A stretch of 64,000 nt of DNA from assembly GCA_000092065.1 (NCBI GenBank), contig CP000597.1; one strand, 5' to 3'. Shown piece after piece: positions 23,650 through 52,740 of the stretch; position 1 is the stretch's first letter; every line of letters starts with the position of its first letter. This DNA is from Ostreococcus lucimarinus. Lineage: Eukaryota. The notes beneath the pieces are model-generated. The model made no database searches and was not told the origin of the DNA. It saw only the letters and a program-made list of their open reading frames with translations. Both the position numbers and the translations under genes were made by a program.

Positions 23650-23700
<51 letters not shown>

Positions 23701-26133: not shown

Positions 26134-26188
26134 GGCATCGCTCGACGCGCGCGGCATCGCTCGACGCGCGCGGCATCGCTCGACGCGC
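26134..26188. repeat. 19-bp tandem repeat x3 in a bidirectional promoter spacer
   Basis: ggcatcgctcgacgcgcgc starts at 26134, 26153 and 26172. It lies between start codons 26068 (-) and 26238 (+). Confidence 0.8.
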
Positions 26189-26237
26189 CGTCTTCGCGCC
26201 GACGCGCGCGTCGGCGGGCGCCATAATACACGTCGCG

Positions 26238-26930
26238 ATGTCGGCGTCGCCGCGATTGAGCGCGGTGCGGCTCGCGGCGAGCGTCGAGGCGCGCATCGAC
26301 GAGACGCGCGAATCGATCGAACACGTGCGAATCGCGTGCGAAGCGGCGACGGAGGCGGCGCGGATCGCCGAACGGGACGCGAGAGGGTCGTCGAAGGCGC
26401 TGCGAGCGAAGGTGGAGGCGCTGTGCGAGCTGAAGCGGGAGAAGCTGGCGCGGGTGGACGCGCTGGAGGCGCTGCGGCGAGAGTACGAGTGCGCGGCGAC
26501 GACGGAGTTTAATTTTGAGGAATACCTGACGAAGAAGACGAAACATTACGCGAGTAAGCGTCGACAAGAGTTGGAATACTTGATAGCGTTCGATGAGGCG
26601 GTGCGGGGGGTGGATGGGGACGATTTGGACGCGGATTTGGTGTTGGACGAAGAAGACGGGACGGCGGGGGCGAGAAACGCGAAGTGTCCGCTGACGGCGA
26701 AACGGATCGAGGCGATCGATGAGCCGGTGGAGGATAAGATGGGATTCATCTACGAGAAGGACGCGATCATGAGGTACATCGGGTCGAAAAAATCGGTGGA
26801 TTGCCCAGAGGCGGGGACGAGGCACAAGGTGAGTAAGGCGGATCTCAAGCCTTCGCGGACGGCGCTCAAGATGAAACAAAGAGCCGAGGGACTGGACGAG
26901 GACGATTCCGGGCAGTTACTGTCGCCGTGA
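26238..26930 (+). CDS. NSE2: NSE2/MMS21-like SP-RING protein (SMC5/6 SUMO ligase family) with degenerate zinc ligands
   Basis: ATG at 26238. N-terminal coiled coil. SP-RING-like KCPLTAKRIEAIDEPVEDKMGFIYEKDAIMRYIGSKKSVDCPEAGTRHKV at about 26681-26831, compared with human [30 protein letters not shown]...CPQIGCSH. Confidence 0.6.
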   Translation: MSASPRLSAVRLAASVEARIDETRESIEHVRIACEAATEAARIAERDARGSSKALRAKVEALCELKREKLARVDALEALRREYECAATTEFNFEEYLTKKTKHYASKRRQELEYLIAFDEAVRGVDGDDLDADLVLDEEDGTAGARNAKCPLTAKRIEAIDEPVEDKMGFIYEKDAIMRYIGSKKSVDCPEAGTRHKVSKADLKPSRTALKMKQRAEGLDEDDSGQLLSP

Positions 26931-36950: not shown

Positions 36951-39900
36951 ATGCGGCTCGACGACGGCGACGACGCGCGACGAAGGGACGCGCGCGCGGT
37001 TCGAGCGCGCGCGACGCGGACGCCGACGCGCGCGGCGACCACGCGCGGCGATGTCGTCGACGCCGCTGCCGCCGATGATGACATCGACGACGACGCCGTC
37101 GCGCGACCGGACGCGACGCGACGACGACGACGCGACGACGACGCGACGACGACGACGCGCGATGATGAGACGACGCGCGCGCGAGAGGGCGCGAGCGGAC
37201 GCCGGCGAGCGCGGGAACGAGGGAGAGCGACGAGGCGTCGTCGACGGCTCGGGACGGCGGCGGCGGCGGCGGCGACGGCGGCGTTGGCGGCGACGGTCGA
37301 GCGCGTCGGCGTGGACGCGTCGACGGCGCTCACGAAGGGGGTGGCGAGGAATGGTTTCGTGTCGTCGAGCGGGTATAAGTACTATAAGGTGAATGTGGCG
37401 TGCGTGGAGGCGGCGCAGCCGCTGACGTTGGAGCTGACGACGAGCAACGGGGACGCGAACTTGTACGTGTCTCGATCGGCGCAGCCGACGACTTCGTCGT
37501 ACGAACAGCGGAGCGTGAACGTTGGAAATGCGTTGGATTCGGTGACGATCACGAGTCCGGTGAATGGGTACTATTACGTGAGCGTGTACGGCGCGCTGTC
37601 CAGCACGTACAAGCTTCGAGCGCTCACGACGATGTTTACCGGGAAACATCCGTGCACGGGATTTCGAATCACCGATAGCGACGTCTCGAGCGTTGGCTCG
37701 GGATCTGGAAATCAGTTCATACTGCAAGAAGCGCTCACCGCGAGCGCGGCGGCGGGATTCACCGCGGATGTGTCCGTCGACGGCGACGTCATCCTCGGCG
37801 ACGCGTACACCGATTCGGTGACGGCGAAAGGAGAGCTCAAGCTCGGCGTGACGGACAGTACGTACTACGCCATCACGCGACAATCGCCGAGCGCACCGAG
37901 CAGCAACCCGGGCGGCGCTTTGTCGATCGTCGGCGCGAACGCGACCTATCAGGGGGGATCGGTAAAGATTCTCGGCGGAACGGGCGGTTCGGGGGCGGGC
38001 GGCGACGTCGTGATCGAGGCGGGGTCGGCGTCTGGCGGCAACGGTGGCGATTTGAAGTTACGTGGCGGCACGTCGAACTCAGGAACGGGCGGCGACGTCG
38101 TCATAGATGCCGGAGATAGCACGACACAAGCATCTTCGTACGAGGGCATCATTCACATAGGTCCAACTTCTGCGTCGTTTGTGCGCGTCGGCGAGAGTTC
38201 AAATAAGCAAGTTCAAACCGATATTTTCGGCGACTTGACGGTGCACGGAAATCTCTTGACAACGAATGATGTGGTGTACGCGAACAGCTACACGAGTTAC
38301 GTGCAGGTTTCAACCTCTCAAGACGGCATGTTTCATCAAGAAGTGCGCGCGCCAAAGATTACAGGTCTGGACGCGGAGGACATCACGGGCACTCCAACGA
38401 GCACGTTGACTTTAGACGCTGGCATGCGAGGGAGTCAGCAACACGTCGTGATCGCTCCGAGCGAGGCAACGGCGGTTTACATAGGTAGCAGCACATCCAC
38501 GATTCCGGTCTCGATAAGGCAAGGCGCGAACGCAGGAGACGTGCGAGTGCACGCTGATGGCAGCGGCGCGCTGTCCGTGACTTCGGCCGCAGGGCAGGAC
38601 CTGACGCTCGCGTCCGGCGACGACGTGGTGGTGACCACCGCGGCGAGTAAGACGCTCGCGCTGAAGCAGGACTCGACGAGCATTTTGAGCTGGGACGCGG
38701 CCGGCGCTGTGACTGTGAACTCCGTGAGCGGGCAGGACCTGACGCTGAGCACGGGCGGTAGCGCGGCCGTGACTGTGGACTCGACCGGGCAGGTGGGCAT
38801 CGGGACGACGACGCCGGGGAAGACGCTGGACGTCACCGGGACGGCGCGCGTGAGTGGCGCGACGACGCTGAGTAGCACGCTTGACGTGACTGGCGCTACG
38901 ACGCTCGCATCCGTGGGCGTGACCGGTGCGGCCACCGTCGGCGGGACTTTAGGTGTGACTGGCGCTACGACGCTCGCATCCGTGGGCGTGACCGGCGCGG
39001 CCACCGTCGGCGGGACTTTAGGTGTGACTGGCGCTACGACGCTCGCATCCGTGGGCGTGACCGGCGCGGCCACCGTCGGCACGACGCTCGGCGTGACTGG
39101 CGCTACGACGCTCACCGGCGACGTGACGATGAGCAACGACTTGACCGTGAGCGGTGCGCTTACTGTGACATCTGATGCCGCTGTGAGTTTGACCTCTGCA
39201 AGTGGTTCGGACGTGAGCTTGACGAGCGCCGGTACGGGTGGCATCGTGTTGACGTCGACGGACGACATCACGCTCGATGCTGCCGATGATGTGACGATCG
39301 ATGCCGCCGGTGCTTTGTCTTTGGAGCAGGGCGGGACGAGTATTTTGAGCTGGACCGACACCGGCGCTGTGACTTTGAACTCCTTAGGCGGGCAGACCCT
39401 GAGCGTGTCGAGCCTCAGCTCGGCCGGGAACGCGGGCGCCGTGAGCGTGTCCGGCGGCACGACGACTGGGACGTCCTCGAACACCGGCGGCGACTTGACG
39501 CTGCAATCTGGCGGCGCGCCCGCTGGCAGCGTGAACGGTGACGTTCTGGTGGACTCGGCCACTGGTCTAGGCACCGCCGGCTCGATCACGCTTCGCCAGG
39601 GGGTGGGCGGTGAGCGTGTTTCTGTGGACGCGAACGGCGCCGTGAGTCTGGACACGCACTCCGGGCAGGACCTGACGCTGAGCACGGGCGGTAGCGCGGC
39701 CGTGACTGTGGACTCGACCGGGCAGGTGGGCATCGGGACGACGACGCCGGGGAAGACGCTGGACGTCACCGGGACGGCGCGCGTGAGTGGCGCGACGACG
39801 CTGAGTAGCACGCTTGGCGTGACTGGCGCTACGACGCTCGCATCCGTGGGCGTGACCGGTGCGGCCACCGTCGGCGGGACTTTAGGTGTGACTGGCGCTA

Positions 39901-42900
39901 CGACGCTCGCATCCGTGGGCGTGACCGGCGCGGCCACCGTCGGCACGACGCTCGGCGTGACTGGCGCTACGACGCTCACCGGCGACGTGACGATGAGCAA
40001 CGACTTGACCGTGAGCGGTGCGCTTACTGTGACATCTGATGCCGCTGTGAGTTTGACCTCTGCAAGTGGTTCGGACGTGAGCTTGACGAGCGCCGGTACG
40101 GGTGGCATCGTGTTGACGTCGACGGACGACATCACGCTCGATGCTGCCGATGATGTGACGATCGATGCCGCCGGTGCTTTGTCTTTGGAGCAGGGCGGGA
40201 CGAGTATTTTGAGCTGGACCGACACCGGCGCTGTGACTTTGAACTCCTTAGGCGGGCAGACCCTGAGCGTGTCGAGCCTCAGCTCGGCCGGGAACGCGGG
40301 CGCCGTGAGCGTGTCCGGCGGCACGACGACTGGGACGTCCTCGAACACCGGCGGCGACTTGACGCTGCAATCTGGCGGCGCGCCCGCTGGCAGCGTGAAC
40401 GGTGACGTTCTGGTGGACTCGGCCACTGGTCTAGGCACCGCCGGCTCGATCACGCTTCGCCAGGGGGTGGGCGGTGAGCGTGTTTCTGTGGACGCGAACG
40501 GCGCCGTGAGTCTGGACACGCACTCCGGGCAGGACCTGACGCTGAGCACGGGCGGTAGCGCGGCCGTGACTGTGGACTCGACCGGGCAGGTGGGCATCGG
40601 GACGACGACGCCGGGGAAGACGCTGGACGTCACCGGGACGGCGCGCGTGAGTGGCGCGACGACGCTGAGTAGCACGCTTGGCGTGACTGGCGCTACGACG
40701 CTCGCATCCGTGGGCGTGACCGGTGCGGCCACCGTCGGCGGGACTTTAGGTGTGACTGGCGCTACGACGCTCGGCGGGACTTTAGGTGTGACTGGCGCTA
40801 CGACGCTCGCATCCGTGGGCGTGACCGGCGCGGCCACCGTCGGCACGACGCTTGGCGTGACTGGCGCTACGACGCTCGGCGGGACTTTAGGTGTGACTGG
40901 CGCTACGACGCTCGCATCCGTGGGCGTGACCGGCGCGGCCACCGTCGGCACGACGCTCGGCGTGACTGGCGCTACGACGCTCGCATCTGTGGGCGTGACC
41001 GGTGCGGCCACCGTCGGCGGGACTTTAGGTGTGACTGGCGCTACGACGCTCACCGGCGACGTGACGATGAGCAACGACTTGACCGTGAGCGGTGCGCTTA
41101 CTGTGACATCTGATGCCGCTGTGAGTTTGACCTCTGCAAGTGGTTCGGACGTGAGCTTGACGAGCGCCGGTACGGGTGGCATCGTGTTGACGTCGACGGA
41201 CGACATCACGCTCGATGCTGCCGATGATGTGACGATCGATGCCGCCGGTGCTTTGTCTTTGGAGCAGGGCGGGACGAGTATTTTGAGCTGGACCGACACC
41301 GGCGCTGTGACTTTGAACTCCTTAGGCGGGCAGACCCTGAGCGTGTCGAGCCTCAGCTCGGCCGGGAACGCGGGCGCCGTGAGCGTGTCCGGCGGCACGA
41401 CGACTGGGACGTCCTCGAACACCGGCGGCGACTTGACGCTGCAATCTGGCGGCGCGCCCGCTGGCAGCGTGAACGGTGACGTTCTGGTGGACTCGGCCAC
41501 TGGTCTAGGCACCGCCGGCTCGATCACGCTTCGCCAGGGGGTGGGCGGTGAGCGTGTTTCTGTGGACGCGAACGGCGCCGTGAGTCTGGACACGCACTCC
41601 GGGCAGGACCTGACGCTGAGCACGGGCGGTAGCGCGGCCGTGACTGTGGACTCGACCGGGCAGGTGGGCATCGGGACGACGACGCCGGGGAAGACGCTGG
41701 ACGTCACCGGGACGGCGCGCGTGAGTGGCGCGACGACGCTGAGTAGCACGCTTGGCGTGACTGGCGCTACGACGCTCGCATCCGTGGGCGTGACCGGTGC
41801 GGCCACCGTCGGCGGGACTTTAGGTGTGACTGGCGCTACGACGCTCGGCGGGACTTTAGGTGTGACTGGCGCTACGACGCTCGCATCCGTGGGCGTGACC
41901 GGTGCGGCCACCGTCGGCGGGACTTTAGGTGTGACTGGCGCTACGACGCTCGGCACGACGCTCGGCGTGACTGGCGCTACGACGCTCGCATCCGTGGGCG
42001 TGACCGGCGCGGCCACCGTCGGCACGACGCTCGGCGTGACTGGCGCTACGACGCTCACCGGCGACGTGACGATGAGCAACGACTTGACCGTGAGCGGTGC
42101 GCTTACTGTGACATCTGATGCCGCTGTGAGTTTGACCTCTGCAAGTGGTTCGGACGTGAGCTTGACGAGCGCCGGTACGGGTGGCATCGTGTTGACGTCG
42201 ACGGACGACATCACGCTCGATGCTGCCGATGATGTGACGATCGATGCCGCCGGTGCTTTGTCTTTGGAGCAGGGCGGGACGAGTATTTTGAGCTGGACCG
42301 ACACCGGCGCTGTGACTTTGAACTCCTTAGGCGGGCAGACCCTGAGCGTGTCGAGCCTCAGCTCGGCCGGGAACGCGGGCGCCGTGAGCGTGTCCGGCGG
42401 CACGACGACTGGGACGTCCTCGAACACCGGCGGCGACTTGACGCTGCAATCTGGCGGCGCGCCCGCTGGCAGCGTGAACGGTGACGTTCTGGTGGACTCG
42501 GCCACTGGTCTAGGCACCGCCGGCTCGATCACGCTTCGCCAGGGGGTGGGCGGTGAGCGTGTTTCTGTGGACGCGAACGGCGCCGTGAGTCTGGACACGC
42601 ACTCCGGGCAGGACCTGACGCTGAGCACGGGCGGTAGCGCGGCCGTGACTGTGGACTCGACCGGGCAGGTGGGCATCGGGACGACGACGCCGGGGAAGAC
42701 GCTGGACGTCACCGGGACGGCGCGCGTGAGTGGCGCGACGACGCTGAGTAGCACGCTTGGCGTGACTGGCGCTACGACGCTCGGCGGGACTTTAGGTGTG
42801 ACTGGCGCTACGACGCTCGCATCCGTGGGCGTGACCGGCGCGGCCACCGTCGGCACGACGCTCGGCGTGACTGGCGCTACGACGCTCGCATCCGTGGGCG

Positions 42901-45900
42901 TGACCGGCGCGGCCACCGTCGGCACGACGCTCGGCGTGACTGGCGCTACGACGCTCACCGGCGACGTGACGATGAGCAACGACTTGACCGTGAGCGGTGC
43001 GCTTACTGTGACATCTGATGCCGCTGTGAGTTTGACCTCTGCAAGTGGTTCGGACGTGAGCTTGACGAGCGCCGGTACGGGTGGCATCGTGTTGACGTCG
43101 ACGGACGACATCACGCTCGATGCTGCCGATGATGTGACGATCGATGCCGCCGGTGCTTTGTCTTTGGAGCAGGGCGGGACGAGTATTTTGAGCTGGACCG
43201 ACACCGGCGCTGTGACTTTGAACTCCTTAGGCGGGCAGACCCTGAGCGTGTCGAGCCTCAGCTCGGCCGGGAACGCGGGCGCCGTGAGCGTGTCCGGCGG
43301 CACGACGACTGGGACGTCCTCGAACACCGGCGGCGACTTGACGCTGCAATCTGGCGGCGCGCCCGCTGGCAGCGTGAACGGTGACGTTCTGGTGGACTCG
43401 GCCACTGGTCTAGGCACCGCCGGCTCGATCACGCTTCGCCAGGGGGTGGGCGGTGAGCGTGTTTCTGTGGACGCGAACGGCGCCGTGAGTCTGGACACGC
43501 ACTCCGGGCAGGACCTGACGCTGAGCACGGGCGGTAGCGCGGCCGTGACTGTGGACTCGACCGGGCAGGTGGGCATCGGGACGACGACGCCGGGGAAGAC
43601 GCTGGACGTCACCGGGACGGCGCGCGTGAGTGGCGCGACGACGCTGAGTAGCACGCTTGGCGTGACTGGCGCTACGACGCTCGCATCCGTGGGCGTGACC
43701 GGTGCGGCCACCGTCGGCGGGACTTTAGGTGTGACTGGCGCTACGACGCTCGCATCCGTGGGCGTGACCGGCGCGGCCACCGTCGGCACGACGCTCGGCG
43801 TGACTGGCGCTACGACGCTCGCATCCGTGGGCGTGACCGGCGCGGCCACCGTCGGCACGACGCTTGGCGTGACTGGCGCTACGACGCTCGGCGGGACTTT
43901 AGGTGTGACTGGCGCTACGACGCTCGCATCCGTGGGCGTGACCGGCGCGGCCACCGTCGGCACGACGCTCGGCGTGACTGGCGCTACGACGCTCGCATCT
44001 GTGGGCGTGACCGGTGCGGCCACCGTCGGCGGGACTTTAGGTGTGACTGGCGCTACGACGCTCACCGGCGACGTGACGATGAGCAACGACTTGACCGTGA
44101 GCGGTGCGCTTACTGTGACATCTGATGCCGCTGTGAGTTTGACCTCTGCAAGTGGTTCGGACGTGAGCTTGACGAGCGCCGGTACGGGTGGCATCGTGTT
44201 GACGTCGACGGACGACATCACGCTCGATGCTGCCGATGATGTGACGATCGATGCCGCCGGTGCTTTGTCTTTGGAGCAGGGCGGGACGAGTATTTTGAGC
44301 TGGACCGACACCGGCGCTGTGACTTTGAACTCCTTAGGCGGGCAGACCCTGAGCGTGTCGAGCCTCAGCTCGGCCGGGAACGCGGGCGCCGTGAGCGTGT
44401 CCGGCGGCACGACGACTGGGACGTCCTCGAACACCGGCGGCGACTTGACGCTGCAATCTGGCGGCGCGCCCGCTGGCAGCGTGAACGGTGACGTTCTGGT
44501 GGACTCGGCCACTGGTCTAGGCACCGCCGGCTCGATCACGCTTCGCCAGGGGGTGGGCGGTGAGCGTGTTTCTGTGGACGCGAACGGCGCCGTGAGTCTG
44601 GACACGCACTCCGGGCAGGACCTGACGCTGAGCACGGGCGGTAGCGCGGCCGTGACTGTGGACTCGACCGGGCAGGTGGGCATCGGGACGACGACGCCGG
44701 GGAAGACGCTGGACGTCACCGGGACGGCGCGCGTGAGTGGCGCGACGACGCTGAGTAGCACGCTTGACGTGACTGGCGTTACGACGCTCGCATCCGTGGG
44801 CGTGACCGGTGCGGCCACCGTCGGCACGACGCTCGGCGTGACTGGCGCTACGACGCTCGCATCCGTGGGCGTGACCGGTGCGGCCACCGTCGGCGGGACT
44901 TTAGGTGTGACTGGCGCTACGACGCTCGGCACGACGCTCGGCGTGACTGGCGCTACGACGCTCGCATCCGTGGGCGTGACCGGCGCGGCCACCGTCGGCA
45001 CGACGCTCGGCGTGACTGGCGCTACGACGCTCACCGGCGACGTGAGCGTCGGGACTTCCTCGGCTTTGAGTTTTGGTTCTGCAACCCGGCAGATGATCAA
45101 CTTATATGGAACAAACAACGCCATCGGCGTGCAATCGTCCACGATGTATTTTCGTAGTGCTTATAACTTTGCCTTTTTTGAAGGCGGCGTGTACACCAAC
45201 ACAGAGCTCGATCCGGGTTCGGGTGGCACTTTGCGCATGATGATTCAGAAAACCACGGGCAACGTCGGTATCGGGACGGCGAGTCCAGATTATGAACTCG
45301 ACGTGGTAGGCGATATCAACTTTTCTGGGAATCTCTATCAGGGTGGTTCGCTGTTTGCCTCCCCCTGGACGGAGAGCAGCGGTAACGTGTATCGCAGTAG
45401 CGGTAACGTCGGCATCGGGCTGACGAATCCGACCTACAATCTGCACGTTGCTGGAACGGGGCGCGTTAGTACGACGCTATCGGTGGGTCAAGATTTAACC
45501 ATCGACACGGCTGGCGACTTGAACTTTGCGGCGACGCATCGTCAGATGATCAACCTCCGCGTCGGCGCCGAGGGTTTCGGGATCGGGACGCAGATGGACA
45601 CGACGTACTTTCGCTCTCCGGGCCACTTTGCGTTCTACGAAGACGGAACGCACAGCACCACTGACTTGGACGCGAACGGTGGCACCGCGCGTCTGGTGAT
45701 CAGGAGCGGCGGGAAGGTGGGCATCGGGCGGACGAATCCGAGCTATGATCTCGACGTGGTAGGCGATATCAACTTTTCTGGGAATCTCTATCAGGGCGGT
45801 TCTCTGTTCCCGTCCCCCTCCCCCTGGACGGAGAGCGGCAGTAACGTGTATCGTAGTAGCGGTAACGTCGGCATCGGGCTGACGAATCCGAGCTACAAAC

Positions 45901-47045
45901 TGGACGTCACTGGAACAGGACACTTCACGGGCGCGACGACGATCGATGACCAACTCACCGTTGGCGGTAACGTATTGATCCAAAGTACAACCAATAAGAT
46001 TTCGTTTGGCAGCACAGCGCGTCAGTTTATTGAAACGAATAACGGTGGAATCGGAACGCAGTCAAAGACGCTGTATTTTCGTTCACAGGATTTTTTCGGC
46101 TTTTACAAAAATGGCGGTCACAACAGCGCCGATCTGAACCCAGGCGGAAGCGGGACTCTCCTTGTCGCCATTCGCGGTGACATCTCTGGTGCTCGAATGG
46201 CGATTGGATCTTCAGACACAGATAGTGGCTACGCTTTTAAGGTCACCGGGTCGGCGCAAGCGACCGCTGCGCTCGACGTAGGCACGACGCTTAATGTGGC
46301 GTCGTACGCGACAATTCGCGGCGACTTGCGCCTCAATACCGGTACTCAGCAAATAAATTTTGGTACCCAGCACCGTCAGGTTGCTGCGCTCGCGACTGGC
46401 GGCATCGGAACGCAGTCGAACACTGTATACTTTCGTTCACAGGACTTGTTTGGCTTTTATAAAGGTGGCGGCCATAGCTCTACCGCTCTTGATCCAGGCG
46501 GAAGCGGGACTCTCCTTGTCACCATTCGCGGTGACGTCTCTGGTCCTCGATTAGGAGTCGGAGTCACGAATCCCTCCTACGCTCTCGAAGTCAATGGAGC
46601 GGCGCACGTGTCTGGCGCACTGAGCAAGGGAAGTGGCTCTTTCAAGATCGATCATCCACTTCCTGAAATGAAAGACACGCATAATTTGTATCACTCCTTC
46701 ATCGAGGGACCACGGGCGGATCTCATCTACAGAGGCAAGGTTCGTTTGCAGAACGGTAGGGCGATGATAGACATCGATGCCGCATCAAACATGACGACAG
46801 GGACATTTGAAGCACTCAATCGCGACGTGCAGTCGTTCACGTCAAATGAAAGCGACTGGGACCCCGTCCGAGGTTCTGTCGTGGGCAACGTCCTCACCAT
46901 TGAGTGTCAAAACCCCACTTCGACGGCACTCATCAGCTGGCTTGTCATCGGTGAGCGTCACGATCAGCACATGTACGACACAGATTGGACCGATGAAAAC
47001 GGTCGTGTCGTTCCGGAACAATTGAAAAAGAGTGCGACGACGTGA
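36951..47045 (+). CDS. Giant (3,364 aa) repeat protein: PPC-like domain, nested tandem repeats, tail-fibre-like C-terminal region
   Basis: ATG at 36951. Arg/Asp leader followed by an Ala-rich hydrophobic anchor (about 37240-37300). PPC-like segment YKYYKVNV...LELTTSNGDANLYVSRS...GYYYVSVYG at about 37371-37630. Repeat array at 38730-45040. Four divergent repeats containing GNVGIG...P.Y.LDV.GDINFSGNLYQGG at 45040-46560. C-terminal FKIDHPLPEMKDTHNLYHSFIEGPRADLIYRGK. Confidence 0.85.
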   Translation: MRLDDGDDARRRDARAVRARATRTPTRAATTRGDVVDAAAADDDIDDDAVARPDATRRRRRDDDATTTTRDDETTRAREGASGRRRARERGRATRRRRRLGTAAAAAATAALAATVERVGVDASTALTKGVARNGFVSSSGYKYYKVNVACVEAAQPLTLELTTSNGDANLYVSRSAQPTTSSYEQRSVNVGNALDSVTITSPVNGYYYVSVYGALSSTYKLRALTTMFTGKHPCTGFRITDSDVSSVGSGSGNQFILQEALTASAAAGFTADVSVDGDVILGDAYTDSVTAKGELKLGVTDSTYYAITRQSPSAPSSNPGGALSIVGANATYQGGSVKILGGTGGSGAGGDVVIEAGSASGGNGGDLKLRGGTSNSGTGGDVVIDAGDSTTQASSYEGIIHIGPTSASFVRVGESSNKQVQTDIFGDLTVHGNLLTTNDVVYANSYTSYVQVSTSQDGMFHQEVRAPKITGLDAEDITGTPTSTLTLDAGMRGSQQHVVIAPSEATAVYIGSSTSTIPVSIRQGANAGDVRVHADGSGALSVTSAAGQDLTLASGDDVVVTTAASKTLALKQDSTSILSWDAAGAVTVNSVSGQDLTLSTGGSAAVTVDSTGQVGIGTTTPGKTLDVTGTARVSGATTLSSTLDVTGATTLASVGVTGAATVGGTLGVTGATTLASVGVTGAATVGGTLGVTGATTLASVGVTGAATVGTTLGVTGATTLTGDVTMSNDLTVSGALTVTSDAAVSLTSASGSDVSLTSAGTGGIVLTSTDDITLDAADDVTIDAAGALSLEQGGTSILSWTDTGAVTLNSLGGQTLSVSSLSSAGNAGAVSVSGGTTTGTSSNTGGDLTLQSGGAPAGSVNGDVLVDSATGLGTAGSITLRQGVGGERVSVDANGAVSLDTHSGQDLTLSTGGSAAVTVDSTGQVGIGTTTPGKTLDVTGTARVSGATTLSSTLGVTGATTLASVGVTGAATVGGTLGVTGATTLASVGVTGAATVGTTLGVTGATTLTGDVTMSNDLTVSGALTVTSDAAVSLTSASGSDVSLTSAGTGGIVLTSTDDITLDAADDVTIDAAGALSLEQGGTSILSWTDTGAVTLNSLGGQTLSVSSLSSAGNAGAVSVSGGTTTGTSSNTGGDLTLQSGGAPAGSVNGDVLVDSATGLGTAGSITLRQGVGGERVSVDANGAVSLDTHSGQDLTLSTGGSAAVTVDSTGQVGIGTTTPGKTLDVTGTARVSGATTLSSTLGVTGATTLASVGVTGAATVGGTLGVTGATTLGGTLGVTGATTLASVGVTGAATVGTTLGVTGATTLGGTLGVTGATTLASVGVTGAATVGTTLGVTGATTLASVGVTGAATVGGTLGVTGATTLTGDVTMSNDLTVSGALTVTSDAAVSLTSASGSDVSLTSAGTGGIVLTSTDDITLDAADDVTIDAAGALSLEQGGTSILSWTDTGAVTLNSLGGQTLSVSSLSSAGNAGAVSVSGGTTTGTSSNTGGDLTLQSGGAPAGSVNGDVLVDSATGLGTAGSITLRQGVGGERVSVDANGAVSLDTHSGQDLTLSTGGSAAVTVDSTGQVGIGTTTPGKTLDVTGTARVSGATTLSSTLGVTGATTLASVGVTGAATVGGTLGVTGATTLGGTLGVTGATTLASVGVTGAATVGGTLGVTGATTLGTTLGVTGATTLASVGVTGAATVGTTLGVTGATTLTGDVTMSNDLTVSGALTVTSDAAVSLTSASGSDVSLTSAGTGGIVLTSTDDITLDAADDVTIDAAGALSLEQGGTSILSWTDTGAVTLNSLGGQTLSVSSLSSAGNAGAVSVSGGTTTGTSSNTGGDLTLQSGGAPAGSVNGDVLVDSATGLGTAGSITLRQGVGGERVSVDANGAVSLDTHSGQDLTLSTGGSAAVTVDSTGQVGIGTTTPGKTLDVTGTARVSGATTLSSTLGVTGATTLGGTLGVTGATTLASVGVTGAATVGTTLGVTGATTLASVGVTGAATVGTTLGVTGATTLTGDVTMSNDLTVSGALTVTSDAAVSLTSASGSDVSLTSAGTGGIVLTSTDDITLDAADDVTIDAAGALSLEQGGTSILSWTDTGAVTLNSLGGQTLSVSSLSSAGNAGAVSVSGGTTTGTSSNTGGDLTLQSGGAPAGSVNGDVLVDSATGLGTAGSITLRQGVGGERVSVDANGAVSLDTHSGQDLTLSTGGSAAVTVDSTGQVGIGTTTPGKTLDVTGTARVSGATTLSSTLGVTGATTLASVGVTGAATVGGTLGVTGATTLASVGVTGAATVGTTLGVTGATTLASVGVTGAATVGTTLGVTGATTLGGTLGVTGATTLASVGVTGAATVGTTLGVTGATTLASVGVTGAATVGGTLGVTGATTLTGDVTMSNDLTVSGALTVTSDAAVSLTSASGSDVSLTSAGTGGIVLTSTDDITLDAADDVTIDAAGALSLEQGGTSILSWTDTGAVTLNSLGGQTLSVSSLSSAGNAGAVSVSGGTTTGTSSNTGGDLTLQSGGAPAGSVNGDVLVDSATGLGTAGSITLRQGVGGERVSVDANGAVSLDTHSGQDLTLSTGGSAAVTVDSTGQVGIGTTTPGKTLDVTGTARVSGATTLSSTLDVTGVTTLASVGVTGAATVGTTLGVTGATTLASVGVTGAATVGGTLGVTGATTLGTTLGVTGATTLASVGVTGAATVGTTLGVTGATTLTGDVSVGTSSALSFGSATRQMINLYGTNNAIGVQSSTMYFRSAYNFAFFEGGVYTNTELDPGSGGTLRMMIQKTTGNVGIGTASPDYELDVVGDINFSGNLYQGGSLFASPWTESSGNVYRSSGNVGIGLTNPTYNLHVAGTGRVSTTLSVGQDLTIDTAGDLNFAATHRQMINLRVGAEGFGIGTQMDTTYFRSPGHFAFYEDGTHSTTDLDANGGTARLVIRSGGKVGIGRTNPSYDLDVVGDINFSGNLYQGGSLFPSPSPWTESGSNVYRSSGNVGIGLTNPSYKLDVTGTGHFTGATTIDDQLTVGGNVLIQSTTNKISFGSTARQFIETNNGGIGTQSKTLYFRSQDFFGFYKNGGHNSADLNPGGSGTLLVAIRGDISGARMAIGSSDTDSGYAFKVTGSAQATAALDVGTTLNVASYATIRGDLRLNTGTQQINFGTQHRQVAALATGGIGTQSNTVYFRSQDLFGFYKGGGHSSTALDPGGSGTLLVTIRGDVSGPRLGVGVTNPSYALEVNGAAHVSGALSKGSGSFKIDHPLPEMKDTHNLYHSFIEGPRADLIYRGKVRLQNGRAMIDIDAASNMTTGTFEALNRDVQSFTSNESDWDPVRGSVVGNVLTIECQNPTSTALISWLVIGERHDQHMYDTDWTDENGRVVPEQLKKSATT
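38730..45040 (+). repeat. Near-identical nested tandem array inside the giant CDS (6 full units plus 1 partial)
   Basis: The QDLTLSTGGSAAVTVDSTGQVGIGTTTPGKTLDVTG landmark recurs at 38730, 39663, 40527, 41601, 42606, 43506 and 44613. Unit lengths are 933, 864, 1074, 1005, 900 and 1107 bp. All length differences are sums of 69-bp (ASVGVTGAATVGGTLGVTGATTL) and 36-bp (GGTLGVTGATTL) sub-repeats. Units are almost identical at nucleotide level by eye. Confidence 0.9.
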
Positions 47046-47163: not shown

Positions 47164-50100
47164 CTATAGTCTAAAAGATAGCTTTGCGAACTCTCCGTCG
47201 GACACCGCGTCGCTCGTCTGCCCCCCCGTCGCGCCGTCATCGCTCGTTTCGCTTCCGAGCAACGAAGACGCCTTTCGCCGGCGCTCAGGCGAATCGTCCG
47301 CGTCCCGAAAATCGTAGAGATAATCGCTATGCCTTGCATAATGCACCCGCGTCGCTTCTTCTCCTGAGGCATTAAATCTATACGACTCGGGAGAAAATGA
47401 TGACTGAGCGAATCTGTCCTCATCTGACGCGCTCTCTTCGGCGTCGTACGATTCACCCATGGAATACGCCAGTTCGCTCGGTTCACGTTCACTCAGTCCA
47501 TCATTCGGTGTATTCAGCCCTGGTTGGCGTCCACTAGATGGGTCTTTCATCTCAAACGCGTAATGATCGTCATCCGAGTCAGCATCCGTGGAAGATGCGT
47601 AAGCACGCCGCGACTCAAACCTGTTCTCACCAAAAAATGCGGCGCCGCGTAGAGGTTCCGGTGGTTCCAGTTCTAGTTCGGGTTCCGGTTCCGGTCGCAC
47701 TTCCCGTTCTGCTGTCACATCCGTCTCTGGTGCGAGATCTAAGATGGACTGGTTCCGTCCGGGCACGACGTTACCCTGCTCTCCATTCGTCTCGAATGCG
47801 GCGAGCGTCGCGACGTGATCGCGAGCGACACTCCCGCCTCGGTGACCCTTTACGACGGCACGTTCTTCCTGAGCGCTGTGGGTGAATCTCTCAATCACGC
47901 TACGCGCTTTGGTTGATGCGTCAAATAACGCGCCACCAGGTTCGCGCGACCGCACGACTTTCTTTTTAATTCTGATTGCGAGTCGTCGAAGCTGAATCGT
48001 GTGCTTGATAATTTCCACCACCTCCTCGGTGTCGTACAGTCCCTCGTCGTCCGCTGATACTGAGAATCTTTCGAGAATGATCGCCACAAATAAATTTCCG
48101 AGCAAAAATATAGAGATGATGACAAATGATATAAAGTATGGGACCGCAGCAGCGTTATACGAGCAGTCGATGCTGGATTCCAACATGAACGGTGCTTCTG
48201 TGCGTAAGCACGCCTCTGTTTGGTACACCTCGCCGAACGTGCCAACCCAGCCACCCGTGTACACCCCGATGAGAGATGAGCAAGCTGTGGTGAATCGTTG
48301 AAAGTTCGAGTACTTCGATAGCACGCCGCCTTCGAAAGGGCCGGTTTCATCGCCGAAAAGTGAAACACCCATGATGGCGTACGAAAAGATCGCGAGGGAC
48401 GATAGCGCGGCGACGTTTCCGACACCCGGAAGACTCATTATGAACGTGTTGAAGAGCGACCGCAGCCCAGAATGTGCCTTTACCAGTTTCAGTAATCTCA
48501 ACAATCTCACCAATTGTAGGTAATTCATGACACCGCCTGCGTTTAGACTTTGTCCGATCGCCTGTACGATGGAAACTACGACGACGAAGGCGTCCAGCCA
48601 ATTCCAATAATTCCTAAAGTAACGCGTCCGACCTTGCGCCATGAGCAAAAGCATCATTTCCAAAGAGTACACCGCAGTGAACGCGATAGACATGCAGAAG
48701 TGAGCATATTCTGCTGAACTGCTCATATTCGCCGTTTGTGTCAAGAGCTCGATTAAATTTGCGCACACTACCACGAGGATGAAGTACGCAAACTTTTTCG
48801 GCTTTGAGATATGATGCGCAAGTAGACGAGCTCGCGACCAAAGGCTTTTGCCTGGCGGCGGTACGATTCTGCGCCATGCCTCTGAATCTTGCGTGCTTGC
48901 ACGTAGTATAGCCTGCTGCCAGCGCCGCTGCGCTGGGGTGACAAACGTAAGCTTGTCTTGCGAAGCCATCTTGTTAAAGTTGTCCACGAGCGCCGTGACT
49001 AATAAATTCAACCAAAAGAAATTCCCGATGGCGACCGTCAATACAAAATAAAGAGCGGCGGCTTGGTTGTTATCTGTTTTCAAGCCGGTCCCGACGCCTG
49101 TGGTATCCATGGCGACCCACATGATTTCTTGCCAGTCATCGCCGGCGTGCAGTAGAAACGTCGATAAAAGTGCAGCGCCAAAGTTATCAAAGTTGAACTT
49201 TGCATTTCGCCACTTTCCTCCCGCTGCCTCGCACGTTGCTTGTGTAGTGTAGCTACTCGCATCATTCACCACTCGACACGACCAAAACTTACCCATAAAG
49301 AGCTCCATACCAAGAAGTGCGAAAATTGACATGGAAACTAAACCGATGAAGCACACGTAACTTACGGCTGGGATCGCGGAAAGTACAGTGTTAACGACAA
49401 GGCGGAGACCAGGGAAACGACGAATGGATCGAAGCGGGCGCATGATTCGCAAAAGTCGAAGTGCTCGCACGCTTCCGCTGCCATCGTCTGCCGCGGTGAG
49501 CGAAATGATTGATGTAAAGACGACGACGCCATCGAGAATGTTGAAGGAATTCTTCAGATACGCAGTCGGTCGCTCGTACAACCCGTAGGCGAATAACTTT
49601 AATACCATCTCTGCGCCAAATAAAGTCGTAAAAGTAATATCAACCGCGGTGTACACTTTTGCAGTATGAGATCCCGCCACTGGCCAAGTCTTTGTTTCTG
49701 TCGCGAGTAACACGCTACCAGCGATGATCATGCATAGAATGGCGTTCTCAAAGAGGTTGTGTGAAACAATTTTGTGCACCAAGTATTTGTATCTCTCGAC
49801 GGGAATCGTATCGTCGTACAGCGGTATAAAGTCGCCATCTTTTGTGACGATCACGCCCGGTATCTCTGACGACTGTTTCTTCACGCGTGAGGAGATGGAT
49901 CTCGTGATTGTCGCCGCCCAAGGACCGTGCGCGTCAAAGACGACATGCTCGTCTTCCTTACTCTTATCCTCGATGCTTAAACGATTGTTTTGCGCCGCAA
50001 ATCTTTTCGTCATACTGTGCCTAATAGAACTTTTGATAGAGCTAGTCACCCCGAACGCTTTGTCTTGATAGTCTTGATACTCCACAAACTTTGGCGTCAG

Positions 50101-52740
50101 GCGAAGTTGAGCCTCCTTAAGAGCGTGCTCGCTTATGGTCAGTACTTGCGCCGGTGTCTTCAACTTGAATCCGATCGAATCTAGAAATATCCTGCACGCA
50201 GCAACATCTTCGACTGTTTGCTTTCTCAAGCGGTCCTTCTTGACCTGCGCGAGCTTGCCACCGTGATCCGGAGGCTTTAATGCTGCGAGTACGGATGAAA
50301 TCGCCGTAGGCGTACTGCCATCGGCCGTCTTTAAACTCTTTTTCGCTTGCGATTGTATTGCTTGTTCGGCACATTCTTGTTTCCTGGCCGCATCCAAAAG
50401 ATTAAACTTGAAGCTCGTATCACCTCTGTCTTTTATCGAGTCGCCGCGCTTGCTGCGCGCATGTTTTCGCAACGTACTCCTGAATGCGTTCGCCGCGAAT
50501 GTCATGTTTTGCAGTACCCGTTTCGCTTTCCGATTCGGATCTAGCACGATATCACCCGCACGTTCGATGGCAGACCTCAGTCTGCCATCTTCAAGCTCGT
50601 CTTGCGCGCGTTGCTCTTCCTCGATGTCGACGAGCGAACACGAGTCGATTAAAATCCCGAGCACGAGCGACAAGATGACGGTGGATAAAAAAATCCACGC
50701 GATGGTGTACAGAACGACGACGTCGTTACCGGACGCTACCATAGTATTCCACGCGACAACAAACGAGTCCTCTCCCGTGGCGACAACAAACAGCGTCAAC
50801 GCGCTGCGCAAAAAGTTCCTAAACGTCAAGCGCTCGTCGTCGAGCGCTCCTAACCCGGTGAAGAGTTGAAATCCGTAAATGGCAAATATGACTTGAAATA
50901 ATAGCCAAACGATCAAAAACGGCCACATGTCTTGGAAACCGAGATACGCGCTTGAAATGATCTTCCTAAATTCTCTGTTGTTTCTGATGACGCGAAACGT
51001 TCGCAGCGCCCTTCCTATTCGCAAGAGACGAATGAATGACGCGCTCACGCCTTGACTCGTCACCGCCGTACTGATGACACCGGTAAACACGATCAACCCA
51101 TCGACAACGTTTTGCTTTGAGCTCCAGTATCCTCTAAAGCCGTATCCGATGTGTTTAATCGCCATTTCTACAGCAAAACATCCGAGGAAAACATATTCTA
51201 AAATTTCAGAAGCCTTGACGAATCCCGACGACGCCGCGTGATGCTGCGACATCATCAAAATTGTATTAAATATAATAACCACCGTGATGCTGGCATCAAA
51301 ACGTCGGTCTTCAGCGATTTTCCAGCACATTTGACGCGTTGCATCAGACACAAAGAGACGAAAAAAACGCTCACCATTCTTGTGAAAGTTGTTTCCGCGT
51401 CCATCGCTTTCGCCGCGACTGAGCGCCGTCTCGTCGTCCAAGCTTTCTAGTACTTTCTCTGTCTTCGCCTGGCTCGAGTCTTCGGGCGCTTCGTCTTCGT
51501 CGCGAATACCCATTTGCGTCAACGTCGCGCAAATGACGGATGTAAAGAGTTCCATCATAAAAAACCCACCCATCAGAACGACGACGATGAACCAAAGAAA
51601 CGCCGCGGGATAGCCAACCGCGTACGCCGTGGGATTGAGCAACTCATTCCAACCGTCGATGGTCATTCCATTTAACGCGACAATTGAACTTCTCCCAGCG
51701 TTCGCAAAGCTCAGAAATCCGTCATACGGCTCGATGCCCGAATCACAGCACCACTCCGTCGCGCTTCTGTTTGTGTTCCATTCCTTGTAGTTGCACGTGC
51801 TGTCGTACTCATTTGGGTACGTTCCTTCGGCGCCCAACGCGAGAGCGCCCATCCACGCGCCGACCAAGTTCGCACACGTCTCACTCCCCGTCCCCACGGG
51901 AAACACGTAGCTCGCGTTCGTCGCTTGATCCGGCGGCGTCCCGTACCACCGTCCCGTCATCCGACCGCCGAACATCGTCACGCCGCTCACCGCGAAGAAT
52001 ATTAAAAACCACAGCAAAAACAACAGCACGTCCCCCAACAACGGCAGCGCTCGAGCGATCGTTTTCATCGCCAACCTCGCGCTGCGGTACTTCGCGAACA
52101 ACTTGAACGCGTACAACGACCGCAACAGTCGCACCGTCACCACCTGCGAGCCTCCGATCGGCATCAACATCAACGACAGCACGACGAGCGTGAAATCGAA
52201 CCGATGCCAATTCGTCGTCAAGTACGCCCCCTCGCCCAGCGCGAATCCCAGCGCCACGCTCTTCACCAGCGCCTCCGCCGCGAACACCCCCGCGACGACG
52301 TAATTCGCCGCCGTCGCCGCCGTCGCCTCCGCCGCGCCATCCCTCGCCGGTTTCACCACCGCGACGATCGCGCTCGAGCCCACGACGCACATCGCGACGA
52401 CGGCGTGAAACGCGCGCGCCTCGATCGCGCGCGCGCAGAACCGTCGCGTCGCGCCGTCGCGCCGGAACATCAACAGCGACGCGTCGTTCGCGCGCCATCG
52501 CTCGAGCGTCCTCGCGACGCGTCGCGTCACCGCGCCTCCCGCGTCGTCGTCGCCGTCGCGCGCGTCGTCGTCGTCGTCGTCGCGCGCGCGCGCGCCGTCG
52601 CGCGCGTCGCGCGCGTCGCCGTCGTCGTCGTCGTCGTCGCTCGTCGAGCTCGCGCGCGCGCTGTCGTCCACCTTCCGCGCGCGCGCCTCGCGCGCGTCGC
52701 GCGCGCGCGACACGAACGCGTCCGTGAACTGAAAGTTCAT
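47164..52740 (-). CDS. Four-domain voltage-gated cation channel (Cav/Nav superfamily)
   Basis: ATG at 52740. Four 6-TM repeats with Arg/Lys-every-third S4 helices: VRLLRSLYAFKLFAKYR, IRLLRIGRALRTFRVIR, VRALRLLRIMRPLRSIRR, LQLVRLLRLLKLVKAHSGLR. Pore loops: MTIDGWNEL, ATGEDSF, HAGDDWQEI, YTGGWVG. Confidence 0.9.
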   Translation of the reverse strand: MNFQFTDAFVSRARDAREARARKVDDSARASSTSDDDDDDGDARDARDGARARDDDDDDARDGDDDAGGAVTRRVARTLERWRANDASLLMFRRDGATRRFCARAIEARAFHAVVAMCVVGSSAIVAVVKPARDGAAEATAATAANYVVAGVFAAEALVKSVALGFALGEGAYLTTNWHRFDFTLVVLSLMLMPIGGSQVVTVRLLRSLYAFKLFAKYRSARLAMKTIARALPLLGDVLLFLLWFLIFFAVSGVTMFGGRMTGRWYGTPPDQATNASYVFPVGTGSETCANLVGAWMGALALGAEGTYPNEYDSTCNYKEWNTNRSATEWCCDSGIEPYDGFLSFANAGRSSIVALNGMTIDGWNELLNPTAYAVGYPAAFLWFIVVVLMGGFFMMELFTSVICATLTQMGIRDEDEAPEDSSQAKTEKVLESLDDETALSRGESDGRGNNFHKNGERFFRLFVSDATRQMCWKIAEDRRFDASITVVIIFNTILMMSQHHAASSGFVKASEILEYVFLGCFAVEMAIKHIGYGFRGYWSSKQNVVDGLIVFTGVISTAVTSQGVSASFIRLLRIGRALRTFRVIRNNREFRKIISSAYLGFQDMWPFLIVWLLFQVIFAIYGFQLFTGLGALDDERLTFRNFLRSALTLFVVATGEDSFVVAWNTMVASGNDVVVLYTIAWIFLSTVILSLVLGILIDSCSLVDIEEEQRAQDELEDGRLRSAIERAGDIVLDPNRKAKRVLQNMTFAANAFRSTLRKHARSKRGDSIKDRGDTSFKFNLLDAARKQECAEQAIQSQAKKSLKTADGSTPTAISSVLAALKPPDHGGKLAQVKKDRLRKQTVEDVAACRIFLDSIGFKLKTPAQVLTISEHALKEAQLRLTPKFVEYQDYQDKAFGVTSSIKSSIRHSMTKRFAAQNNRLSIEDKSKEDEHVVFDAHGPWAATITRSISSRVKKQSSEIPGVIVTKDGDFIPLYDDTIPVERYKYLVHKIVSHNLFENAILCMIIAGSVLLATETKTWPVAGSHTAKVYTAVDITFTTLFGAEMVLKLFAYGLYERPTAYLKNSFNILDGVVVFTSIISLTAADDGSGSVRALRLLRIMRPLRSIRRFPGLRLVVNTVLSAIPAVSYVCFIGLVSMSIFALLGMELFMGKFWSCRVVNDASSYTTQATCEAAGGKWRNAKFNFDNFGAALLSTFLLHAGDDWQEIMWVAMDTTGVGTGLKTDNNQAAALYFVLTVAIGNFFWLNLLVTALVDNFNKMASQDKLTFVTPAQRRWQQAILRASTQDSEAWRRIVPPPGKSLWSRARLLAHHISKPKKFAYFILVVVCANLIELLTQTANMSSSAEYAHFCMSIAFTAVYSLEMMLLLMAQGRTRYFRNYWNWLDAFVVVVSIVQAIGQSLNAGGVMNYLQLVRLLRLLKLVKAHSGLRSLFNTFIMSLPGVGNVAALSSLAIFSYAIMGVSLFGDETGPFEGGVLSKYSNFQRFTTACSSLIGVYTGGWVGTFGEVYQTEACLRTEAPFMLESSIDCSYNAAAVPYFISFVIISIFLLGNLFVAIILERFSVSADDEGLYDTEEVVEIIKHTIQLRRLAIRIKKKVVRSREPGGALFDASTKARSVIERFTHSAQEERAVVKGHRGGSVARDHVATLAAFETNGEQGNVVPGRNQSILDLAPETDVTAEREVRPEPEPELELEPPEPLRGAAFFGENRFESRRAYASSTDADSDDDHYAFEMKDPSSGRQPGLNTPNDGLSEREPSELAYSMGESYDAEESASDEDRFAQSSFSPESYRFNASGEEATRVHYARHSDYLYDFRDADDSPERRRKASSLLGSETSDDGATGGQTSDAVSDGEFAKLSFRL

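Follow-up and report, generated by a model that had tools for sequence, protein, structure and literature searches.

A giant Ostreococcus lucimarinus gene ends in a predicted beta-sandwich shared with cyanophage and prasinovirus fibre proteins

Ostreococcus belongs to an algal group infected by prasinoviruses, and this pair of host and virus is a leading marine model of coevolution; to our knowledge, the receptors and attachment proteins of the system are still unknown. Among the closest described relatives of the gene product analyzed here are cyanophage virion proteins of 1170-1600 aa encoded in phage structural clusters, namely the 'phage tail fiber-like protein' PSSM2_295 of P-SSM2 (Q58M60) and the virion structural proteins of S-TIM5, S-TIM54, S-TIM61 and S-TIM66. 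Also related are the prasinovirus 'putative tail fibre' proteins (metagenomic contigs L015-L048; BFVD entry E5ES67), which are 1100-1830 aa long and whose genes adjoin capsid paralogues. In bacteria, Peptidase_S74 (PF13884) proteins such as W03_10340 of Nitrosomonas sp. PY1 and proteins from Nostoc MAGs end in an intramolecular chaperone that follows a beta-repeat shaft. C-terminal beta-sandwiches are typical of tailspikes, where they act in folding, trimerisation and/or host recognition (PMC8822698, PMC10653864). Tail fibre genes of prasinoviruses have also been noted in PMC12906663 and PMC12584671, and these may belong to the same family.

The analyzed window, a stretch of 64,000 nucleotides from O. 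lucimarinus CCE9901, harbors a giant ORF of 3364 aa (36951..47045, + strand, from the ORF list). Its last 2 kb had been noted in a preliminary description as resembling bacterial and phage tail-fibre termini. An exact look-up of the 3364-aa protein returned no record, the public gene model presumably being different, and a literature search found no paper discussing the gene. The neighboring PWWP ORF is an exact match to XP_001422099.1. The flanking genes are ordinary eukaryotic ones, encoding a pseudouridine synthase, a four-domain ion channel, a kinase, PIP5K and ubiquilin, and no viral hallmark was detected among the window genes examined (Pfam on 10 further ORFs and the translated ion channel), all of which are cellular in type. 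The giant gene does not lie inside a viral structural gene cluster, and in this respect it is not a virion component as a phage tail fibre is.

The protein starts with 100 Arg/Asp-rich residues, which precede an Ala-rich hydrophobic segment (aa 103-121, 37257..37313, + strand). The Kyte-Doolittle mean of the protein (19 aa) peaks in this segment at 1.29, which is low for a transmembrane helix, and the segment is possibly a signal peptide or signal anchor. A PPC (pre-peptidase C-terminal) beta-sandwich domain follows (aa 142-214, 37374..37592, + strand; PF04151, E 1.6e-9, exceeding the Pfam cut-off), and a Gly-rich region is also part of the N-terminal section. When aa 105-640 were used as query, only eight relatives with 46-98% identity were obtained, the identifiable ones being algal; the four closest are 71-98% identical, while one is a marginal match on the PPC domain (E 1.4e-4). 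The alga-specific N-terminus and the giant repeat array set this 3364-aa nuclear gene product apart from the P-SSM2 and S-TIM proteins, and the prasinovirus fibres have neither the PPC/N-terminal region nor the YFRS modules described below.

The repeat array or shaft (38886..45032, + strand) was characterized by TRF, amino-acid composition and GC3. About seven super-repeats, each 0.9-1.1 kb long and containing nested repeats of 36, 69 and 105 bp (TRF), make up the array, which is rich in Thr, Gly, Ala, Val and Ser. Weak similarity was found to prasinovirus-like fibres (26-35% identity), with which VGIG..P..LDV.G motifs are shared, and to cyanophage fibre proteins. Resemblance to viral fibres is thus not confined to the last 2 kb.

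The start of the C-terminal region had been placed accurately at 45040, as TRF puts the end of the array at nt 45032, and the four related modules reported behind it are present (aa 2698-3226). All lie on the + strand: M1 (aa 2698-2848, 45042..45494), M2 (aa 2849-3007, 45495..45971), M3 (aa 3008-3125, 45972..46325) and M4 (aa 3126-3226, 46326..46628). The motifs quoted for them, RQ.I, YFRS, F.FY..G.H, LD..G.GT and VGIG..P.Y.LDV.G, were found as well. A module size of 90-100 aa holds for the cores, which are about 100 aa long, but not for the spacing of 151, 159, 118 and about 100 aa, since M1 and M2 are each extended by a tail of about 50 aa (in M1 LYQGGSLF...NVGIG...). Pairwise identity is 59% for M1/M2, 54% for M3/M4 and 34-47% for the cross-pairs. 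M1 matched the tail fiber protein family phrog_9942 (E 4e-14) and bacterial proteins, and M2 matched fibre proteins of cyanophages, Thermus phages and bacteria; identity of the modules to bacterial 'tail fiber domain-containing' proteins, and to the repeats of the PF13884 proteins named above, is 30-40%. Over the full module region (nt 45042-46628, coverage 100%), the metagenomic protein P0343 has an identity of 100%. Module content differs between close strains, and the O. tauri copy has no modules.

M4 runs straight into the junction LSKGSGSF and the terminal domain (aa 3224-3364, about 140 aa, 46620..47042, + strand). The sequence GSGSFKIDHPL starts at aa 3227 (nt 46629), and the stop codon of the ORF lies directly behind the domain. 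In a tblastn search against INPHARED, marine cyanomyoviruses gave the only matches (50-56% identity, 85-93% query coverage, E 1e-41 to 1e-44), which stop 9-17 aa before the end of a 1170-aa 'tail fiber protein' and a 1597-aa 'virion structural protein'. The likeness to PSSM2_295 and the S-TIM group accordingly concerns the extreme C-terminal domain, and the phage and algal versions are predicted to have the same fold (TM 0.83). IMG/VR gave at least 600 matches with 61-74% identity, and more than 600 marine viral contigs are 65-75% identical in this domain. In the best-scoring viral group (33 of the 80 loci), NCLDV capsid paralogues and DUF5767 lie beside a fibre gene encoding up to 1832 aa, and the two contigs checked in this group also encode NMT and an AEP primase. 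Going by their gene content, the best viral relatives are prasinovirus-like giant viruses, and the terminal domains of their putative tail fibres are 72-75% identical to the algal one (E5ES67, 72%). Overall, matches reach E 1e-41 to 1e-103 and, judged by sequence similarity, the resemblance of the C-terminal region to viral fibres is not due to chance. The proposed tail-fibre resemblance thereby reflects homology of the terminal domain, to phage fibre or virion proteins as well as to prasinovirus-like fibre proteins.

A profile search recovered 10,641 cluster representatives (50% clusters) of the domain, 2,867 of them at E<=1e-30. The family is very large, mostly viral and uncurated, and has no Pfam model. 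Of the 150 best proteins (280-1950 aa), nearly all have the domain at or near the C-terminus, and across 97 loci 0-26 residues lie downstream of it. An alignment of 51 sequences including the window gene showed K23, S25, G26, F28, I30, H32, P33, H45, E49, Y57, D73, N96, E97, W100, W127 and E132 to be invariant; when two cyanophage sequences were added (53 sequences), K23, S25 and G26 were conserved to at least 90% and the other core residues stayed invariant. In similarity, C-terminal placement and core residues the domain is of the FKIDHPL type (P-SSM2 gp295 / S-TIM5 type). The bacterial side of the proposed resemblance holds for the modules and for one prophage-borne terminal domain, obtained in a plasmid search and located in the prophage tail block of a bacterial replicon. 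In bacterial and archaeal genomes the terminal domain is otherwise rare: a scan with two narrow peptide patterns, which divergent or prophage copies could escape, retrieved it in nine short MAG contigs. The protein P0011 on a '72-Mb contig' was considered as a copy from another eukaryote and dropped, its neighbors being a mix of bacterial and phage genes. Viral and bacterial matches were thus obtained, whereas the preliminary description had named their absence as grounds for giving up the idea.

Pfam and NCBIfam searches with the C-terminal region gave nothing meaningful, and the terminal domain of the window remained below every Pfam threshold. Sub-threshold matches to K1-lyase_C (PF24146) were seen in 10 of the 51 relatives (best E 0.0013) and not for the window sequence. 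An AF2 model (pLDDT 87.8) predicts that the terminal domain is a beta-sandwich of the tailspike/fibre C-terminal type. It matched solved tailspike C-terminal domains over part of its length, with coverage of about 75-100 of 161 residues and TM values of 0.27-0.38 to solved structures. The sandwiches concerned, those of K1-lyase_C, the Pam1 tailspike (7eea), the R2 pyocin fibre (6cl6) and AP22 gp53, are 11-15% identical to the algal domain, with aligned cores of about 75-100 residues. A weak match to 7eea in the PDB sequence search was later upheld by this fold comparison. The Ig domains of CD276 (B7-H3), also obtained from the PDB sequence search (E 1e-5), were taken as a chance or compositional match of beta-strands because the per-domain E is about 0.8.

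The Peptidase_S74 domains of endosialidases and of many bacterial tail-fibre-domain proteins offer another way to understand the terminal domain, as an intramolecular chaperone that would be cleaved off at LSKGSG/SF after aiding trimer folding. The domain sits exactly where PF13884 sits in the bacterial homologues of the modules, its placement at or near the C-terminus fits this role, and the K-G-S-G-S-F junction is (nearly) invariant across relatives regardless of the upstream sequence. However, PF13884 gave no match to the C-terminal region at E<=1, and the predicted beta-sandwich resembles the C-terminal domains that are retained in tailspikes and pyocin fibres, not the S74 chaperone. The bacterial and algal proteins are alike in that a beta-repeat shaft leads into a C-terminal assembly domain, but this is the S74 chaperone in the former and the FKIDHPL beta-sandwich in the latter. 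We therefore regard a cleaved chaperone as unlikely.

Orthologous giant ORFs were identified in O. tauri (L005) and in the metagenomic algal contigs L095-L097, and at least five algal loci carry the terminal domain; synteny holds for three of these. Gene order of the window is kept in L095 and L096; the downstream neighbors of the O. tauri copy differ, and orthology is assumed there from sequence. The terminal domain is 71-81% (L097, L095) and 92% (O. tauri) identical among the algal orthologues, comparable to the divergence of the N-terminus. A dN of 0.046 and a dS of 0.93 (dN/dS about 0.05) were obtained from the one comparison made, that with O. tauri, and the gene is under purifying selection. 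Synteny, the comparable N- and C-terminal divergence and the low dN/dS indicate that the gene is old in the lineage.

The relationships of the terminal domain were analyzed in a neighbor-joining (NJ) tree with bootstrap, in which sampling is biased to the best matches. The algal clade was placed inside the viral radiation, with 99% bootstrap for the window sequence and O. tauri and 85% when L095 is included; monophyly of the four algal sequences reached 42% and a sister relationship of algae and prasinoviruses 29%. A cross-kingdom origin of the fibre part is likely, so that this element of the earlier idea of a horizontally acquired module is retained. In our view, the region is probably the distal end of a domesticated, anciently acquired virus-type fibre that was fused to an alga-specific N-terminus, and would serve in tip and trimer formation. 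The source of the fibre part would have been a virus (a phage or a prasinovirus) or a bacterium, and the recipient an ancestor of these Ostreococcus lineages; full adaptation to host composition, expansion of the array and reshuffling of module number would have followed.

Transfer in the opposite direction was also considered, prasinoviruses having captured the terminal domain, and perhaps pieces of the shaft, from an algal host that had obtained it earlier from phages or bacteria. Prasinoviruses acquire host genes, and the algal and core prasinovirus clades are neighbors in the NJ tree, both of which are compatible with such a capture. The viral fibre genes furthermore lie in a variable region beside capsid paralogues, and 'phage tail fibre' genes are part of a published hypervariable region in the genomes of OtV (PMC12906663). 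On the other hand, the grouping of algae with prasinoviruses has the low support given above, some phage contigs match the algal domain as closely as the prasinovirus ones do (L055, 74.6%), and the viral copies, with a GC3 of 0.28, bear no trace of host composition. Capture from the host thus appears rather improbable.

The lower GC of the last 2 kb had been taken as a sign of horizontal acquisition. The step itself is real: GC falls from 0.680 in the array (GC3 0.79) to 0.547 in the C-terminal 2 kb (GC3 0.61), the N-terminal part of the gene having values of 0.641 and 0.75. A bacterial or phage module acquired separately and fairly recently would also agree with the overwhelmingly viral or bacterial homologues and with the variable module content and its absence in O. 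tauri, which point to a recombinationally mobile region. However, in 150-codon windows of the other window genes GC3 has a median of 0.66 and a 10th-25th percentile of 0.56-0.63, so that 0.61 is within their range. In every gene of the 64-kb window GC3 declines from 5' to 3', from about 0.85-0.95 to 0.45-0.65, and the adjacent ion-channel gene is equally GC-poor (GC 0.47-0.52 over 4.8 kb), with GC and GC3 like those of the C-terminal 2 kb. The drop is therefore not evidence of foreign origin. The orthologues show no dip: with a GC3 of 0.71 (O. tauri) and 0.79 (L095), their terminal domains match or exceed the remainder of the gene and are far from the viral value. The C-terminal region does not have the composition of a recently transferred segment, and the argument from GC is largely refuted. 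Together with the distribution of the domain over the algal loci, the low dN/dS and the viral-fibre-like shaft upstream of 45040, this makes a recent acquisition very unlikely. The step at nt 45040 is best read as the edge between a homogenized GC-rich array and the ordinary GC level of a 3' end. An intragenic GC step is thus no evidence of transfer in this genome, where GC3 falls from 5' to 3' in every gene of the window and tandem arrays stay GC-rich.

That the closest non-algal relatives are viral could also be explained by contamination with viral DNA, a chimeric assembly, or an integrated element of giant-virus or prophage type. This is hardly credible given the one uninterrupted ORF that joins the alga-specific N-terminus to the terminal domain, the host-like composition, the cellular character of the window genes examined and the recurrence of the same junctions in O. 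tauri and in independently assembled metagenomes.

Judged by phage tailspikes and fibres, the most likely role of the C-terminal sandwich is to bring three chains into register, lock them as a trimer and form the distal tip, where the invariant His, Glu and Asp residues might build a metal-binding or lectin-like site. The modules and the array would then make up the shaft of this trimer, with the N-terminus targeting the protein to the cell surface or anchoring it there. Identity of 60-75% between cyanobacterial viruses, algal viruses and algae is unusually high, however; conservation of this degree is atypical for a host-specific receptor-binding tip and could point to another activity, such as that of an enzyme or a self-processing site. 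More speculatively, and with little probability, the alga would display at its surface a fibre whose tip is of the same family as that of its viruses (72-75% identity). The host fibre might then share the ligand of the virion fibres or assemble together with them, serving as a receptor mask or decoy in a kind of antiviral mimicry, or it might be a self-recognition adhesin copied by the viruses for docking onto cells. With a conserved fibre-end domain shared with viruses, synteny and purifying selection, the host gene is a candidate for surface interactions. It also offers a way into a viral domain family that is very large (about 10,600 cluster representatives) and uncurated.

The region under study closes, at its 3' end, one uninterrupted ORF of 3364 aa (36951..47045, + strand), the giant gene, which is surrounded by eukaryotic genes of ordinary kinds. 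Upstream lies a gene for pseudouridine synthase and downstream, in convergent orientation, one for a four-domain voltage-gated cation channel (47164..52740, - strand), while genes for a protein kinase, PIP5K, ubiquilin and others are found farther away. In the same window, a PWWP-domain ORF (9072-11615, + strand) is identical to XP_001422099.1 of O. lucimarinus CCE9901. A 2032-aa ORF (13276-19371, + strand) combines rhodanese, sulfotransferase, AMP-binding, PP-binding, NAD_binding_4 (reductase) and zinc-ADH domains and is an NRPS-like carboxylate reductase fusion; XP_001422100.1 (P0491) of O. lucimarinus, from the same 90%-identity cluster, has just 408 aa.

The giant protein starts with a charged tail, followed by a weak hydrophobic segment and then a PPC domain. 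Only eight relatives of the N-terminal 540 aa were obtained, one of them marginal on the PPC domain, and the identifiable ones are algal. The shaft follows (38886-45032, + strand), comprising about seven super-repeats of 0.9-1.1 kb with nested 36/69/105-bp repeats, whose 88-100% matches imply recent homogenisation or expansion. A 2221-aa antisense ORF (38477-45142, - strand) is probably a side effect of the repeat structure. As had been accurately noted in the preliminary description, the array ends (nt 45032 by TRF) ahead of four modules, M1 (aa 2698-2848), M2 (aa 2849-3007), M3 (aa 3008-3125) and M4 (aa 3126-3226), together nt 45042-46628, which share a common core of about 100 aa with the motifs quoted there, including YFRS. 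M1 and M2 (59% identical) carry an additional tail of about 50 aa; M3 and M4 are 54% identical, and cross-pairs 34-47%. The terminal domain starts at an invariant LSKGSGSF junction, with GSGSFKIDHPL at aa 3227 (nt 46629).

The terminal domain had no match in Pfam or NCBIfam and matched only weak phage families in PHROGs. A search of 5.8 billion proteins yielded 582 relatives, most of them 60-80% identical and from marine metagenomes. They include an O. tauri entry named 'phage tail fiber-like protein, partial' by NCBI, so automated annotation had picked up the similarity before. When 1.84 billion cluster representatives were searched exhaustively with a profile, the family grew to 10,641 members (2,867 at E<=1e-30). 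The 150 best proteins are 280-1950 aa long, and in nearly all of them the domain is C-terminal or nearly so. At the 97 loci examined it was last in the ORF in every case, with 0-26 residues beyond, and the ORFs at viral and MAG loci reach 1902 aa. One relative, P0077 (272 aa, JGI metagenome), fuses a cytidylyltransferase-like domain (PF01467) to the terminal domain, an unusual non-fibre context or possibly a gene-calling merge. The ENA records of three proteins (P0011, P0312, P0498; 72.5 and 104 Mb) bring together genes of phages, actinobacteria and other sources, and are probably metagenome records joined end to end rather than chromosomes.

The search against bacteria, phages and prasinoviruses envisaged in the preliminary description led to matches in marine cyanomyoviruses, prasinovirus-like contigs and a prophage block. 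Among 50,697 phage records only ten matched (50-56% identity), all from marine cyanomyoviruses or a related marine virus, among them S-TIM5/54/61/66, P-SSM2 and P-SSM5. The match stands at the end of the 1170-aa 'tail fiber protein' PSSM2_295 in P-SSM2 and of a 1597-aa 'virion structural protein' in S-TIM66. IMG/VR marine viral contigs gave at least 600 matches, with 61-74% identity among the matches listed. The best-scoring viral group (33 of 80 loci, GC 0.36-0.40, 72-75% identity) is prasinovirus-like: the fibre gene adjoins NCLDV major-capsid paralogues and DUF5767, and two contigs checked (L020, L002/P0074) also carry N-myristoyltransferase and AEP primase. Other loci are from tailed phages with PHROG virion and tape-measure matches, at equally high identity (e.g. 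74.6% for phage contig L055). A fixed order was seen in the prasinovirus-like contigs L015-L038, L040, L042, L045, L047, L048 and L073, in which the large fibre gene is followed by a DUF5767 protein on the opposite strand, a 160-170-aa ORF and a 344-aa capsid paralogue, often with a second large protein after it. Contig L018 has an FG-GAP (integrin-alpha-like) protein upstream. Prasinovirus 'tail fibre' genes have been noted previously (PMC12906663, PMC12584671); our literature search found no paper discussing the host gene itself.

In cellular genomes, two narrow peptide patterns scanned against 185,579 species of bacteria and archaea detected only nine copies, on GTDB MAG contigs of 1.7-10 kb from unrelated phyla (L006-L014). 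One of these (L013) also matches an NCLDV-type AEP primase, and all nine look like viral contigs mis-binned with cellular genomes. A further copy, 41% identical, ends a 735-aa hypothetical protein on the 464-kb plasmid NZ_CP084393.1 of Pseudochrobactrum sp. XF203 (L098, 223479-225686), between genes for a 'tail fiber protein', an M15 peptidase and a GH108 lysozyme, i.e. in a prophage tail/lysis block. The terminal domain is a member of a very large, uncurated and essentially viral C-terminal domain family.

M1-M4 matched phrog_9942 'tail fiber protein' (E 4e-14), cyanophage and Thermus-phage fibre proteins (25-42% identity) and many bacterial proteins (30-40% identity), including 'tail fiber domain-containing protein' of Nitrosomonas and Nostoc. 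The likeness to bacterial tail-fibre termini proposed in the preliminary description thus stands well for the modules, and for the terminal domain by way of phage and prophage copies; in bacterial module homologues the C-terminal slot is usually occupied by Peptidase_S74 (PF13884), whereas the giant gene has the FKIDHPL-type domain instead. Array and modules also align weakly with prasinovirus-like fibres (35% identity, E 3e-17; 26% over 770 aa), indicating that the virus-like character extends beyond the last 2 kb.

An AlphaFold2 model from 51 sequences showed an all-beta sandwich (pLDDT 87.8), with which Foldseek results against PDB were consistent. In BFVD the model superposed on P-SSM2 Q58M60 (TM 0.83) and further matched an unnamed entry 72% identical and several 'K1 capsule-specific polysaccharide lyase C-terminal domain' proteins; Pfam PF24146 (K1-lyase_C) gave sub-threshold matches in 10 of 51 family members. 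Such C-terminal beta-sandwiches have been described as typical of tailspikes, where they aid folding and the formation of trimers and/or recognition of the host (PMC8822698, PMC10653864). That the domain is a self-cleaving chaperone of the S74 type would fit its C-terminal position and the invariant KGSGSF junction, but the fold is unlike S74 and we regard this as unlikely.

Neighbour joining on 74 distinct terminal domains, sampled with a bias to the best matches (140 columns, 100 bootstraps), grouped the window with O. tauri (99%), these two with the metagenomic algal contig L095 (85%) and all four algal sequences (42%), next to a core prasinovirus clade (96%). The full set lies inside a radiation of viral contigs, and the algal copies are thus embedded in viral diversity. 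As to the horizontal origin proposed in the preliminary description, algae and prasinoviruses were sisters in just 29% of replicates. The donor may have been a phage or a prasinovirus, and transfer between alga and prasinovirus may have run in either direction.

In O. tauri RCC1115, a giant ORF of >3515 aa ends in a terminal domain 92% identical to that of the window. A dN of 0.046 and a dS of 0.93 between the two terminal domains indicate strong purifying selection. The gene order of the window recurs on two metagenomic eukaryotic contigs (L095, 81% identical terminal domain; L096, from a 78%-identical cluster), where the pseudouridine synthase and a PPC-bearing giant gene are followed by the ion channel, an EF-hand gene and a kinase. 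A third algal contig (L097, 71%) has different neighbours. In O. tauri (L005, KZ155793.1) AATF, PsaD and rubrerythrin-domain genes lie downstream instead of the ion channel of the window, L095 and L096; the difference reflects either rearrangement of the locus or paralogy of the two genes. N-terminal and terminal parts of the algal orthologues have diverged similarly. YFRS modules number zero in O. tauri, four in L095 and three in L097, and zero to four in near-identical metagenomic variants of the window gene (P0343-P0347, P0001-P0003, P0268), counts to be read cautiously as the assemblies are fragmentary. This variation suggests frequent recombination among modules.

GC drops from 0.680 in the array to 0.547 in the last 2 kb (GC3 0.79 and 0.61; N-terminal part, GC 0.641, GC3 0.75). 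The lower GC of this region had been described correctly, yet its reading as a mark of horizontal acquisition did not hold. In all verified genes of the window (1918-4359, 9072-11615, 13276-19371, 22576-23943, 25635-26927, 47164-52737, 54102-55673) GC3 is about 0.83-0.96 in the first 150 codons and then 0.45-0.65 toward the 3' end, so that GC oscillates along the window on a kb scale. The adjoining ion-channel gene is equally low (GC 0.47-0.52, GC3 0.5-0.65, across 4.8 kb), and the C-terminal region falls inside the distribution of other genes' windows (median GC3 0.66). It is the array that stands out, in that it maintains its GC3 over 6 kb, probably because near-identical repeats are homogenised and rich in GC-rich Gly/Ala/Thr/Val codons. 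Terminal-domain GC3 in the orthologues (O. tauri 0.71, L095 0.79, L097 0.64) is equal to, above or close to the rest of the gene; in prasinovirus copies it is 0.28. The low GC of the last 2 kb is no sign of transfer.

Taken together, we favour a reading in which the region is the far end of a virus-type fibre that has been domesticated. The C-terminal sandwich would most likely register and lock a homotrimer and form its tip, which may hold a putative metal- or sugar-binding site built from invariant His, Glu and Asp residues. Modules and array would build the shaft, and the alga-specific N-terminus would target or anchor the protein at the surface of the wall-less cell. The terminal domain is very highly conserved across viruses with unrelated hosts, which favours a structural or assembly role over host-specific receptor recognition. 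A reading in which the attachment fibres of the alga's own viruses are hindered by the host fibre, or make use of it, appears quite improbable. The region represents a phage-type fibre in a giant eukaryotic form adapted to its host, and its terminal domain belongs to a large, uncurated family.
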